Origin: Gammaproteobacteria bacterium
Lineage (GTDB): Bacteria > Pseudomonadota > Gammaproteobacteria > CAJXQU01
Assembly: GCA_965238175.1 (NCBI GenBank)
Contig: CBDEGZ010000003.1
Location: 2,240,001 to 2,304,000, forward strand
Direction of reading: 5' to 3'
DNA length: 64,000 bases
Under the pieces are notes generated by a model. The model worked only from the letters and a program-made list of their open reading frames with translations, was not told the DNA's origin and searched no databases. Shown in pieces: positions 57,874 to 62,229 of the stretch (positions within the stretch are counted from its first letter, which is position 1; every line of letters begins with the position of its first letter). Position numbers and translations under genes: made by a program.

Positions 57874-58048
57874 AAATTTATTTATTACTTTTCATACTTA
57901 ATCGTAAGTGAACATCATTTTCTCGGAGCAATCTTAAACAGTGATTACGATGATACCATTTACGGAAGACTAATCCTTACATTGATAATCCATTATTTCC
58001 AACGACGAATTCTGATCACATTCTCCCCTTTATCGTTTTTTTATCGTC

Positions 58049-58067
58049 ATGCGACAATTGGTCGCAT
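58049..58067. promoter_or_regulatory. RegA/PrrA-like palindromic site
   Basis: ATGCGAC-AATTG-GTCGCAT between divergent genes. Confidence 0.55.
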
Positions 58068-58135
58068 TTTGATCTAACGGCTACTTTGCTAGTATCCCTT
58101 GTAAACCTAATCTGAAATATCCAAAAGGAACAATA

Positions 58136-59116
58136 ATGAAAAAGTATTTAATTGCTAGCCTGGTACTTCTCAATTCATCTTTCGCTTTTTCTCATGACTA
58201 TGAGAGCGTCCGCCCAGATTCACACGCACCCTATGGCGTCATGGGTGATCATACGCATAAATTGGGTGAGGTGATGTTGTCGTATCGATTTATGCGTATG
58301 GAAATGAATGATAACCGCGATGGAACGGATCGACTCAGTGATTCTGAGGTTTTAGCTGATTTCCCTGTTGCTCCAAGAAAGATGACAATGGATATGCATA
58401 TGTTTGGCGCTATGTATGCACCCAATAACAAGTTAACACTGATGGTAATGGTTCCTCTGCTTAATATATCGATGGATCATGTTACACGTACGGGGGGGGA
58501 ATTCACGACCAAAACTGATGGCTTTGGAGATGTAAAACTGTCAGGTCTGTATTCGCTATACGAGCATGGCAACCATAGAGTTCACCTGAATGCTGGGATC
58601 AGTTTACCGACTGGCTCCGTTGACGAACGTGATGATACTCCCATCATGGCAAATGCTATCCTTCCCTACCCAATGCAACTTGGTTCAGGAACTTATGATC
58701 TACTACCTGGTATTACCTACAATGGGCAAACAGTAGCATGGTCCTGGGGCGCTCAATTATCAGGTGTTGTTCGGCTTGGTGAAAACGATGAAGATTATAC
58801 ACTCGGTAATAAGATTGAATTAACCGGCTGGGTCGCGCATAAATGGAATGATCATATTAGCACCTCATTCCGACTTGCGGGTCAAAACTGGGGAAATATA
58901 GATGGTAGTGATGATCGTCTAAACCCAAATATGGTCCCAACTGCAGATACTGATCGCCGTGGAGGGGATCGCGTTGATGCACTTGTGGGCATCAATTATA
59001 AAATGGCCGGTTTTAGAATCTCAGCTGAAGTAGGTGCACCGGTATACCAACATCTTGACGGCCCACAATTAGAAACAGACTGGATAGGCACAATTGGTAT
59101 GCAGTACGCTTTCTAG
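58136..59116 (+). CDS. His/Met-rich outer-membrane beta-barrel (transporter family), possibly metal related
   Basis: Signal peptide, HAPYGVMGDHTH, MTMDMHM, GFGD, LPTG, YPMQLGSG, C-terminal YAF. Confidence 0.75.
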   Translation: MKKYLIASLVLLNSSFAFSHDYESVRPDSHAPYGVMGDHTHKLGEVMLSYRFMRMEMNDNRDGTDRLSDSEVLADFPVAPRKMTMDMHMFGAMYAPNNKLTLMVMVPLLNISMDHVTRTGGEFTTKTDGFGDVKLSGLYSLYEHGNHRVHLNAGISLPTGSVDERDDTPIMANAILPYPMQLGSGTYDLLPGITYNGQTVAWSWGAQLSGVVRLGENDEDYTLGNKIELTGWVAHKWNDHISTSFRLAGQNWGNIDGSDDRLNPNMVPTADTDRRGGDRVDALVGINYKMAGFRISAEVGAPVYQHLDGPQLETDWIGTIGMQYAF

Positions 59117-59211
59117 TTATTTAACCTGATGTGATGGTCTCCTCCCCCTAACGGCATCTAGGTGCCATGATTGAACTGACATACACACAATCAAAAGAGG
59201 AGAAGACCAAA

Positions 59212-60225
59212 ATGAAGACTACAACAATCGGGTTAGACATAGCAAAAAACGTATTTCATGCTGTCTGCTGTAATCAACAAGGGCGTATAATCAAAAAGAA
59301 AATGTTAAAGCGAGCGCAGGTACTCTCCTTTTTTCAATCTCAACCTCCTTGTTTAGTCGCAATAGAATCTTGTGCAACGTCACAGTATTGGGCCCGAGCG
59401 ATACAACAACAGGGACATCAGGTGAAATTACTACCACCTCAGCATGTTAACGCATTTCTAATCGGCAATAAGAATGATTATAACGATGCCTTGGCCATCG
59501 CCGTTGCTGCGAAACAACCTCATTTAAAAAGTGTGGGCATTAAATCAGTTGAGCAACAAGACAACCAGGCACAACATAAAGCAAGAGACTTAGCGGTCAG
59601 ACAAAGAACCGCATTATGTAACCAAATGAGAGCGCTTGTTGCAGAATATGGCATTAGCCTTCGTCCCGGCCTAAATACCCTACGTCAATCTATCCCGTTG
59701 CTATTAAGTGATGAGAACGAACGGTTGTCCGTTACTTTCAAAAGGATACTGCGCCAGCTAAAGGAACAATGGCAATCACTTGATGCCTGTATTGCGACAT
59801 TTGACCAATTGATCATTCAATCGGCAAAAAACAATGCGATTTGCCAACGCTTACAAACTATTCCAGGGTTTGGGCCGATGGTCTCGAGCGCGTATTTTAA
59901 TGAAGTGGGAAACGGCGCTCATTATCACAAAGGGCGCGATGTGTCCGCCTCATTAGGACTTGTTCCACGACAGTACAGTAGTGGTGGTAAAGAGGTGCTA
60001 CTGGGGATCAGTAAACGCGGCAATAAATACCTTCGTTGTTTGTTAATTCTAGGCGCGAAGGCCGTGGTATCAAGAGCCAAAACGAAAGGCGATAAACTGA
60101 GTCAATGGATTAATCGTTTAGTTGAGACGCGGGGGCATAATCGAGCGTGTGTGGCGTATGCCAACAAAATGGCAAGAATGGCCTGGGCTATAACGGTTTC
60201 TGGTGATGACTACTCACCGGCCTAA
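59212..60225 (+). CDS. IS110/IS1111 DEDD recombinase (start revised to MKTTTIG)
   Basis: IGLDIAKNVF, AIES, KNDYNDALAIA, TIPGFGP, LGLVPRQYSSGGK, ANKMARMAWA; GAGGAG RBS. Confidence 0.96.
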   Translation: MKTTTIGLDIAKNVFHAVCCNQQGRIIKKKMLKRAQVLSFFQSQPPCLVAIESCATSQYWARAIQQQGHQVKLLPPQHVNAFLIGNKNDYNDALAIAVAAKQPHLKSVGIKSVEQQDNQAQHKARDLAVRQRTALCNQMRALVAEYGISLRPGLNTLRQSIPLLLSDENERLSVTFKRILRQLKEQWQSLDACIATFDQLIIQSAKNNAICQRLQTIPGFGPMVSSAYFNEVGNGAHYHKGRDVSASLGLVPRQYSSGGKEVLLGISKRGNKYLRCLLILGAKAVVSRAKTKGDKLSQWINRLVETRGHNRACVAYANKMARMAWAITVSGDDYSPA

Positions 60226-60455
60226 ATAGAGAGAACAAATCATTTCAACGAATTGCGAAGGTAAAACTAAAGATGGCATAACAGGTCAAACCAGCCTATT
60301 GAAAACCTGTCGAGCTCAGGGGTAACTAATACCGATAACCTGATAAGGAAAATAGGCGCGTAATACATCCAGGTCAGAAGTTGAAAACTTCATTGAAGGC
60401 CGTATATATGACAGCAATCCTGTCCCTGTTATCTGAATGTTTTATCTTGCAATAC
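60226..60455 (+). ncRNA. Predicted bridge/seek RNA of the IS1111 element (limits approximate)
   Basis: Segments matching target (60311-20, 60336-43) and donor junction (60365-69, 60404-11) flank small hairpins, with outer stem GCCTATT/AATAGGC. Confidence 0.8.
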
Positions 60456-60882
60456 GGGAGGAGACCATATATGAACTCGGGATAAGGGTGACCCTAAAAA
60501 CATTAAAAGACAATGGGCTAGATGAAAACACTGTGACTGTTTTGTCCGGTGGATTTCTTTTAATGGCTATTAAGGCGGAGTTGCGTAGCAATAGCGAGCT
60601 ATATTGGAGACAACTCTAACGCACTGAGGCGCTAAAAAAGTCTGCTGGATAGGTATTTCTTATCCCAAGTTCAGATTATTTAGCATATTAGTGCTGTAAT
60701 ATACTATTTCTTAAGGAGCTTTCAACTCCCTTTATAACCCAAGTTAAATTTTGTCTCAAATCAGCGACAGTTTAATTCTCCCCTGTTAACCAGTTCGAAC
60801 TGTCCCTATAATACTGGCTCTTATTGGGGAATGGGAGTCATTGTTGTTCTGTGTATCGGCAGAATAACATAATCAAATCAAA

Positions 60883-62229
60883 ATGCTTTTTTCTATAAAG
60901 AAAGGCTTGGATCTGCCTATTTCTGGACAACCAGACCAAAAAATTGACAACGCAGCTGCGATTAAAACTGTCGCTATTTTGGGCAATGATTATATTGGAA
61001 TGAAACCTAGGCTACAGGTTCAAGAAGGCGATAATGTCAGGCTGGGTCAAACTCTTTTCATTGACAAGAAGAACACTGGTGTCAAATTTACCTCTCCCGG
61101 CGCAGGAACAGTCAAAGCGATAAATCGTGGTGCTAAACGCGTTCTACAATCTGTAGTTATTGAATTAGAGGGTGATGATGCAGAGACATTTGAAAAATTT
61201 GATCAAAATACGTTGTCTAACCTCGAACGATGTGTCGTAAAGGAAAATCTGATCAATTCCGGACTTTGGACAGCGTTAAGAACCCGTCCTTACAGTAAAT
61301 CACCAAAACCAGACTCAGTACCAAGCTCAATTTTTATCACCGCAATAGATACCAACCCACTTGCTTGCGACCCTGAGACTGTTATCAAAGAACAGGCCGA
61401 GTCATTTAATGATGGTGTTATTGTTCTATCTCGTCTAACCGACGGTAAAATATTTGTTTGTAAGTCTGACCAAACAGATATAAACATTACTCAAACCGAG
61501 CAAATTGAACTTCATAATTTTGCCGGCCCACACCCTGCTGGACTGGTTGGCACCCATATCCATCATCTTGATCCGGTTAATAGTGAAAAAATGGTCTGGC
61601 ATATCAATTATCAAGAGGTCATTGCTATAGGAAAATTATTCACCACCGGCCAATTATGGGTTGAACGAATTATTTCTATCGCAGGCCCAATGGTTAAACG
61701 ACCAAGATTACTACGCACAAGACTTGGAGCAAACACTGAACAACTGCTCCATGAAGAAACGGAACATAAACCTTCTCGTGTTATTTCCGGATCAGTTCTA
61801 TCTGGTCATCAAGCATCTAACTGGGCGGCGTATTTAGGTAGGTTCCATCAACAAATTTCTGTTATTGAAGAAAAAACTGATCGAGAATTCTTTGGCTGGA
61901 TAAAACCGGGACGTAATAAATTTTCAGTATTGAATGTATTCATATCGAAGTTCCTTGGCGTTAAGAAATTTAATCTAAACACATCACAAAATGGTAGTCC
62001 TAGAGCCATGGTACCAATAGGTGCCTTCGAGGGCTTGATGCCGCTTGATATTTTACCAACCCAATTACTCAGAGCGCTTGTTGTAAAAGATACTGATGCC
62101 GCTCAACAGCTGGGTTGTCTTGAATTGGATGAGGAGGATTTATCCCTTTGTTCATTCGTTTGCTCGGGAAAATATGACTATGGCCCCGTGTTACGAACTA
62201 ACCTGAACCAGATAGAGAAAGAAGGATAA
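60883..62229 (+). CDS. nqrA: Na+-translocating NADH:quinone reductase subunit A
   Basis: [49 protein letters not shown]. Confidence 0.97.

Follow-up and report, generated by a model that had tools for sequence, protein, structure and literature searches.

Several insertion sequences (IS) of the IS1111 family find their targets by means of a small non-coding RNA. As described in the available parts of Siddiquee et al. 2024 (PMC11187229), such a seekRNA has been experimentally shown for ISEc11, ISKpn4, ISPst6 and ISPa11, and that of ISEc11 is both required and reprogrammable. In the same account, family members encode a DEDD transposase of 330-350 amino acids (aa), carry subterminal repeats of 11-13 bp with terminal extensions that measure 7 (or 6) bp at the left end and 3 bp at the right, and give rise to a circular intermediate whose abutted ends create a promoter; the seekRNA is encoded downstream of tnp, which is the transposase gene, and the complement of the top strand stands 5′ of the complement of the bottom strand. 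For 93% of IS1111 elements, the accessible sections of Durrant et al. 2024 (PMC11208160) predict a bridge RNA in the right end, the donor-binding bases often lying in a multiloop. In Coxiella burnetii RSA 493, 20 of the 21 IS1111 copies reside in QMITE2, a miniature inverted-repeat transposable element (MITE), according to the available text of Wachter et al. 2018 (PMC5896051). Here we analyze an IS1111-family element in a 64,000-nucleotide stretch of gammaproteobacterial DNA (the window), which belongs to the 3.33-Mb contig of a source genome of 3.35 Mb and 40% G+C (G000). We read it, with a probability of about 0.9, as an intact and recently active element that would be guided by RNA into the tips of IS982-type terminal repeats, through four guide segments.

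The element and its parts lie in the window as follows.

59127-60471, + strand: IS1111-family insertion sequence, 1345 bp, with ends identical in 25 genomic copies.
59127-59133, + strand: left terminal extension TGATGTG, 7 bp, of which the initial TG(A) is the core common to the target.
59134-59146, + strand: left subterminal inverted repeat ATGGTCTCCTCCC, 13 bp, which recurs in 51 relatives and whose perfect complement lies at 60456-60468.
59212-60225, + strand: transposase gene, 337 aa, with the domains DEDD_Tnp_IS110 and Transposase_20; the reading frame is also open from 59167.
60456-60468, + strand: right subterminal inverted repeat, 13 bp, the perfect complement of ATGGTCTCCTCCC.
60469-60471, + strand: right terminal extension ATA, 3 bp.

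The ATG at 59212 has a GAGGAG 9 nucleotides (nt) upstream, and the homologs of the transposase are also 337 aa long. The protein matches PF01548 (E = 3.6e-16) and PF02371 (E = 6.4e-20) in Pfam, and it scores 302.9 bits (cut-off 140) against the NCBIfam model NF033542, 'IS110 family RNA-guided transposase', a name that several of its homologs already carry. This is a large family, with 7463 matches at E <= 1e-60 among 8000 scored, the nearest being 83% identical. The stretch GLVPRQYSSG contains the C-terminal motif of the IS1111 family, GL-P----S(t)G, and aligns with GLTPRRYESG in the Ser-Gly loop region of the IS621 transposase (8wt6). Non-coding DNA amounts to 246 nt 3′ of the gene (60226-60471) versus 85 nt 5′ of the start at 59212. 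The left and right extensions (7 and 3 bp) have their boundaries set by 25 copies with differing flanks. Domains, length, motif, repeats, extensions, 3′ non-coding region and a single oriented target all agree with what is expected of the IS1111 family, and by these features the element is a member of it. As far as the available text of PMC11187229 describes them, ISEc11, ISKpn4, ISPst6 and ISPa11 have the same type of transposase, repeats, extensions, 3′ non-coding region and guide order, and like them the present element inserts in one orientation without duplication and has close relatives that have been naturally retargeted by changes in their guides. Unlike theirs, its target, as read from the sequence, is the tip of IS982-family terminal repeats.

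The genome contains 25 copies of the IS: 22 are exact, two have one substitution each, and one is cut by the start of a contig. The 22 identical copies argue for recent activity. AACC stands at the end of each of the 25 left flanks, and TGA at the start of each of the 24 right flanks that can be read. Past ~9 bp the left flanks are unrelated to one another; 23 of the 24 insertion sites have a T at position -5. The orientation of the IS relative to the motif is always the same, with one copy of TG(A) shared between target and IS end and no target duplication. When all IS copies are cut out in silico, the IS-free chromosome has 853 AACCTGA sites, 24 of them occupied. We scored each site by how many of its positions +1 to +5 match the sequence that would pair perfectly with target guide 1, one of the four segments introduced below. 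Occupancy for the sites with a T at -5 is:

0 matches of 5: 1/107
1 match of 5: 1/61
2 matches of 5: 5/23
3 matches of 5: 7/16
4 matches of 5: 9/12
5 matches of 5: 0/1

For sites without a T at -5, occupancy is 1/633.

The genome also holds partial copies. Two solo left-end fragments of 75-83 bp (C3:1154716-1154798 and C3:2897431-2897503; L027 and L028) and a 390-bp piece that is 79% identical to the IS (L026, C3:2357911-2358291) all three lie at TAAYC|TGA-type sites, and are older or decayed relatives of the same IS. At C3:1393274-1393339 (L029:1501-1566), two IS left ends placed head to head form a perfect palindrome of 66 bp, flanked by TAACC and GGTTA, which resembles what an aberrant event between a pair of inverted insertions would leave behind. 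In contigs from four sequencing runs, compared with 58300-61300, the IS appears as one collapsed contig of 1353 nt in run X1, and the contigs of X4, X5 and X6 carry next to none of it; no contig with an empty site or a circle junction was found among the four runs, a negative that says nothing about expression or absence.

The right flank that recurs most, TGAACTCGGGATAAG..., belongs to a MITE of ~207 bp, as its terminal inverted repeat. The inverted pairs of this repeat are 187-199 bp apart and are flanked by 7-bp duplications. In the window, the MITE and the point at which it is split are:

59117-59123, + strand: left copy of the MITE target-site duplication, TTATTTA, 7 bp, with the same 7 bp at 60676-60682.
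59124-59126, + strand: first 3 bp of the MITE terminal repeat, ACC, severed by the IS.
60472-60675, + strand: the rest of the IS982-type MITE, 204 bp, starting with TGAACTCGGGATAAG and ending in the inverted copy of the repeat.
60676-60682, + strand: right copy of the MITE target-site duplication, 7 bp.

The IS is positioned 3 bp inside the terminal repeat. In the closest sister genome (G002, ~84% nucleotide identity in the flanking genes), the two genes are adjacent, with a single CTATTTA between them and neither MITE nor IS; because this orthologous site is empty, the boundaries of the MITE and its 7-bp duplication are fixed. Nine longer copies of the MITE, including the one in the window, have 79-89% identity whereas the IS copies are near-identical, and therefore the MITE copies are far older than the IS copies.

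A full-length relative of the MITE is also present, as an element of ~1007 bp with an open reading frame (ORF) of 299 aa and an end of the form ACC|TGAGATCGG. The ORF product scores 279.6 bits (cut-off 130) against NF033520 (IS982) and matches PF13612 with E = 5.2e-78, and the element has imperfect repeats starting with ACC and 7-bp duplications (TTAGTTA, TAACTTA). Members of the IS982 family are ~1 kb long, with terminal inverted repeats, 'AC' ends and a duplication of 3-9 bp. By its transposase, size, repeats and duplications, the ~1007-bp element is one of them. Two identical copies of it both have the IS in the ACC|TGAGATCGG end, and a diverged copy has the IS in the other end, which bears the MITE-type repeat. 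The IS982-type ends ACCTCAG, ACCCCAG and ACTCCAA that are also found in the genome are unoccupied. In a hand count over the restored sites, in which we allowed at most two mismatches to TCGGGATAAG at +3 to +12, 16 of the 24 insertions are in an IS982-type repeat. Three of the others are 5 bp outside the left end of a 1231-bp element of the IS481 family, one is inside an IS481-family element, 52 bp from its end, and four are elsewhere.

How does the IS recognize such a site? To examine the 3′ non-coding region, one genome per species was scanned for relatives, and the best 80 of 386 relative-encoding stretches yielded 51 non-redundant elements, chosen for having the same subterminal repeat and extensions of 7 bp and 3 bp. 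The last 215 nt of these were aligned together with those of the window's element, 52 in all. The consensus fold has 35 pairs, 20 of which show compensatory changes. In 97.7% of the paired cells the two bases can pair, compared to 36-45% when the partners are slid by 1-3 columns, and 194 cells have double changes, against a mean of 50.6 in shuffled alignments, none of which (0/500) reached that number. The conserved structure consists of:

60281-60423, + strand: predicted scaffold of the bridge/seek RNA, from the consensus fold of the 52 elements.
60281-85 with 60419-23, + strand: helix P1 (ACAGG with CCTGT), which closes the scaffold.
60294-300 with 60351-57, + strand: helix P2 (GCCTATT/AATAGGC).
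60306-08 with 60346-48, + strand: helix P3.
60321-33, + strand: hairpin P4, between the target guides, all 4 pairs with compensatory changes.
60372-75 with 60398-401, + strand: helix P5 (GGTC with GGCC).
60377-91, + strand: hairpin P6, within P5 and between the donor guides, all 5 pairs with compensatory changes.

The variable blocks of the alignment are those between the helices, and they are where the four guide segments lie.

60310-60320, + strand: target guide 1, complementary to the target top strand CC-TGA-GCTCG, 9/10 at the window site.
60334-60343, + strand: target guide 2, identical to the target top strand TAACC-TGA, 8/8 at the window site.
60361-60371, + strand: donor guide 1, complementary to GATGT of the left IS end, with a possible additional G-U pair.
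60402-60411, + strand: donor guide 2, identical to the joined ends ATATA-TGA, 8/8.

Being identical to the top strand, target guide 2 would therefore pair with the bottom strand. It spans the last two bases of the MITE target duplication, then ACC, and then TGA. The element is like IS621 (Durrant et al. 2024, in the accessible sections of PMC11208160) in its four guides, which would cover the two strands of target and donor about a short common core, and so it is in having a RuvC-like and a Ser-Gly domain, its C-terminal domain aligning to 8wt6 at E = 2.3e-4. The two differ in that, by the same source, IS621 has its RNA in the left end, a CT core and subterminal repeats of 2-3 bp, compared to the right end, TG(A) and 13 bp here, and in that the guides of IS621 line a simple internal loop whereas each guide pair here flanks a hairpin.

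These segments had been proposed in an initial annotation made from this one sequence. It had noted that removal of the IS leaves ...TTTAACC-TGA-ACTCGGGATAAG and that joining the IS ends gives ...CCATATA-TGA-TGTGATGG, it had placed four guide-like segments (CGAGCTCAGG at 60311-20, TAACCTGA at 60336-43, ACATC at 60365-69 and ATATATGA at 60404-11), and it had described the stem GCCTATT/AATAGGC (60294-300 with 60351-57) and the hairpins GGTA-ACTAA-TACC (60321-33) and GAAGTT-GAA-AACTTC (60377-91). Every one of these coordinates and strings is present in the sequence. On a single sequence, the matches are only moderately beyond chance: when the non-coding region is shuffled 3000 times, the 8-nt match to the target top strand arises 141 times, the donor match 188 times, and both together 5 times. 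Taken by themselves, the exact 5-nt runs to the reverse complements do not reach significance. The observation is more than chance because the 25 copies share their flanks and because guides and targets covary in 48 relatives. The annotation had suggested both comparisons, and they came out as it anticipated, with every genomic copy at AACC|TGA and with guides that change together with their targets across homologs.

The covariation was measured in the 48 elements for which both flanks are available, leaving out the two core positions and permuting the targets 5000 times. Target guide 1 complements its own target at 296/432 positions, where permuted targets give a mean of 139 and a maximum of 177. 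For target guide 2, identity to its own target is 245/384 (permuted mean 106, maximum 138). The pattern is also visible element by element. On the donor side, donor guide 1 follows positions 5-7 of the left extension in 117 of 153 cases (permuted mean 97.9, maximum 109), and in donor guide 2 the base preceding the G, T or C, varies with the core of the target of each element. Where the ends are conserved, so are the donor blocks, and where the ends change, the blocks change too.

Among the closest relatives, with transposases at 68-78% aa identity and a near-identical scaffold, we can see retargeting at work. L032, L033, L037 and L057 retain TAACC|TGA targets together with TAACCTGA guides, and L031, L034, L035 and L036 have other targets and correspondingly different guides. 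Only one of the six other genomes of the genus that were searched contains DNA of the IS, as a fragment (G003); the guide of this same-genus relative fits its own flank TGAATTCGG, and the flank of the fragment, TGAATTCGGGATAAG, is an exact match to its guide. Guides for TAACC|TGA thus occur in six elements from five genera (the window, G003, L032, L033, L037 and L057), all at IS982-repeat-like sequence. In these relatives, guide positions +1/+2 follow the local variant of the repeat, and guides with GCTC, GTTC, GATC and GAATTC are seen. L057, in Pseudoalteromonas, is inserted at the end of an element of the IS982 family, and the transposase of that element shares 62% identity with its counterpart here. 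Finally, a 400-genome sample of the class was searched with the non-coding region; it gave 10 further genomes, whose readable loci belong to the distant group, some of them already collected, and it added nothing independent to the set of relatives.

Many more distant relatives, at 50-58% aa identity (L048, L050, L079, L093, L094, L096, L097, L100, L102, L108 and others), are found at sites of the type GTAGG(T/G)|YGG(A/G)TTAGC. These sites look like palindromes of the repetitive extragenic palindromic (REP) type, and the guides of those relatives match them.

The initial annotation had noted a 3-nt core, TGA, as a possibly new feature of this element, and that part of it does not hold. The core shared among the 52 elements is TG or CG (YG). 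The A in third place comes with the IS end (YGATG), and no more than 19 of 52 elements, among them the one in the window, have a target that matches it; 33 of the 52 share YG or less with their target when the third position is considered. Because the shared core is YG and the A belongs to the donor end, we reject the 3-nt core. We also observe that in 12 of the 52 (L056, L058, L059, L065, L077, L083, L086, L088, L093, L094, L100 and L108) the left core is TG but the core in the right flank and all core positions of the guides are CG. A crossover located 5′ of the core's first base could account for this pattern, and so could tolerance of a T/C mismatch at that base.

We propose excision as a circle, guidance by RNA, and recombination at TG(A) because the layout of the element agrees with that of published IS1111-type elements. 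The DEDD (RuvC-like) recombinase, with its C-terminal Ser-Gly domain, would partner with a non-coding RNA from the 246-nt 3′ region, in which the conserved helical scaffold presents four short single-stranded segments. The segments flanking P4 would read both strands of the target, ...TAACC|TGA(G/A)(C/A/T)TCG, and the segments flanking P5/P6 those of the IS ends once joined, ...CCATATA|TGATGTG. Recombination of the excised circle with the target would then take place at the shared TG(A), in a fixed orientation and with no duplication. Since the guides would specify the junction and the first bases of the terminal repeat of IS982 elements and the ~207-bp MITE, the IS would land 3 bp inside, splitting the repeat. 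The sequences themselves establish the anatomy, the flanks of the copies, the conserved structure, the covariation of guides with target and donor, and what the target is. From the published mechanism of the family we infer that the RNA is produced, associates with the protein and directs recombination, and likewise that a circle with a junction promoter forms. For the promoter there is a candidate in the alignment:

60447-60452, + strand: TTGCAA, a candidate -35 box by sequence reading, followed after a 17-nt spacer by a -10-like TATGAT only across the joined IS ends.

The TTGC of this box is invariant, and CTTGCAA is present in at least 90% of the 52 elements. TTGCAA/TATGAT would fit the junction promoter published for the IS1111 family. 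In the inserted state, TTGCAA is followed after 17 nt by TATGAA, across the boundary of IS end and MITE (60447-60475), pointing outward to nqrA (start at 60883), and TTGCAA-TATGAA is a possible outward-reading promoter toward that gene.

Several observations weigh against the reading of an RNA-guided element directed to IS982-type repeats. The sole site in the genome that is perfect for both target guides is empty; it is ~10 bp to the right of, and inverted to, a copy of the IS in an occupied weaker site (L024, C3:393963-395307), inside a short palindrome of two repeat tips. Guide 1 has a C opposite the A at +1 of the commonest target, hence its 9/10 match, and donor guide 1 is short, with 5 Watson-Crick pairs and a possible wobble. 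Eight of the 24 insertions are outside recognizable IS982-type repeats. Folding of the single sequence is weakly distinctive, with z = -2.6 over the non-coding region as a whole and -1.1 over 60290-60420, a scan of 58000-62000 against Rfam 15 reported no family at E <= 1, and among the sequencing runs searched there was no RNA run with the element's sequence. Moreover, the permutation tests ignore the relatedness of the elements, and for that reason their margins are overstated, although still very large.

Part of the evidence could be explained in other ways. One would keep the mechanism as it is and have the guides specify only a motif of ~13 nt, TAACC-TGA-N2-TCG, so that the position in IS982 ends is incidental or simply a safe landing place. 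It would accommodate the eight insertions elsewhere, the fact that occupancy tracks the guide match irrespective of context, and the many relatives with REP-like GTAGG|YGG targets, which are likewise repeated and harmless sites. It sits less easily with the 16 of 24 insertions in one repeat type, with the IS982-repeat-like surroundings of all six TAACC|TGA-guide elements in five genera, one of them in a full IS982-family element, and with guide positions +1/+2 that follow the local repeat variant. We regard this explanation as a minority possibility, and it would weaken only the view, put forward in the initial annotation, of an element that hunts other elements. A stronger version of that same view, which we hold only tentatively, is that an IS1111 sub-clade, found in this genome as well as in Colwellia, Shewanella, Paraglaciecola and Pseudoalteromonas, may specialize in parasitizing IS982-family elements. 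The insertion would disable the IS982 end by loss of its first 3 bp, the guides would drift with the variants of the repeat, and the ends that lack TGA (ACCTCAG, ACCCCAG, ACTCCAA) would be escape variants.

The right flank could also be DNA carried along with the IS, either in a longer composite element or by transduction, and then it would not be a target at all; ~10 copies do share at least 40 bp of similar right flank. But the IS copies are 99.9-100% identical next to MITE copies at 79-89%, uninterrupted MITE ends of the same sequence exist, the IS is found at either MITE end, there are at least four unrelated families of right flank plus singletons, and 51 relatives whose flanks are unrelated have their right end marked at the same place by the subterminal repeat and 3-bp extension, all of which makes carried DNA extremely improbable. 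On the other hand, the protein alone might pick the target, the 3′ region being a terminator or a regulatory untranslated region and its matches coincidental. The moderate unlikelihood of the single-sequence matches (both 8-mers in 5/3000 shuffles) and the lack of an RNA run with the element's sequence among the runs searched would be as expected. What makes this explanation very improbable is that 48 elements with very different targets covary with their guides on a fixed scaffold, that near-identical proteins and scaffolds go with different guides and targets, and that, in the available parts of PMC11187229 and PMC11208160, the RNA of the family is experimentally required and reprogrammable.

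Partridge and Hall reportedly described in 2003 that IS4321 and IS5075 target the terminal repeats of the Tn21 family. Like those, the present element belongs to the IS1111 family and inserts into the terminal inverted repeat of a different transposable element; unlike those (Tn3/Tn21), it has the IS982 family as its victim, and the sequence differs. The arrangement is also like that of IS1111 and QMITE2 in Coxiella, as presented in the available text of PMC5896051, in that IS copies sit in MITE copies and the MITE is older and more diverged than the IS. It is unlike it in that the QMITE2 site is a GTAG REP palindrome inside the MITE, while the site here is the outermost bases of the terminal repeat, and full-length IS982 elements are also targeted. 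The terminal repeat of another mobile element that the initial annotation saw in the guide's target is indeed that of IS982-family elements and their MITEs. Its suggestion that the specificity might be new stands in part: full-text literature searches, which did not cover ISfinder, returned no report of IS982 ends as a target of IS1111 elements, but the targeting of MITEs and transposon ends by IS1111 relatives had already been published. The target specificity, IS982 ends, is new, and the kind of element is known.

The finding leaves the known mechanism unchanged and extends the range of IS1111 targets to the terminal repeats of the IS982 family. It makes natural RNA-guided transposition readable from one genome, with 25 copies and 853 candidate sites, and with occupancy that grades with the guide match, and it shows close relatives retargeted by changes in the guide segments alone. 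These natural pairs of guide and target, with tolerated mismatches beside the core, could inform the design rules of bridge/seek RNAs. If the specialist parasite were real, we would be looking at an RNA-guided arms race between two families of insertion sequences.

The IS481-family element near several of the copies (NF033577, 279.1 bits) is 1231 bp long, and C3 has ~60 near-identical copies of it with 7-bp target duplications; an example is in L018, to the right of the IS copy at C3:945276-946620. We considered whether the three IS copies next to it sit in a terminal repeat that the IS481 element interrupts; no matching partner flank was found among the flanks of 47 IS481-type copies. Many IS481-family copies have non-matching flanks, which suggests rearrangements between copies. 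At C3:1050196-1054153 (L016, L017), two inverted IS copies enclose a single IS481-family element, with 37 bp of MITE to one side and 5 bp to the other, in an arrangement that resembles a composite transposon.

To the left of the MITE, 58136-59116 is an ORF of 326 aa that ends at a TAG directly before the MITE target duplication; it has a weak match to Phenol_MetA_deg (PF13557), and its product is probably an outer-membrane protein. On the other side, the neighboring NqrA is ~70% identical to Methylophaga-type proteins. The host seems to be a marine gammaproteobacterium that is uncultured. Elsewhere in the assembly, contig C1 of G000 (10,967 bp) has 55.8% G+C compared to 40.4% for the chromosome, and may be foreign DNA, a plasmid or contamination.

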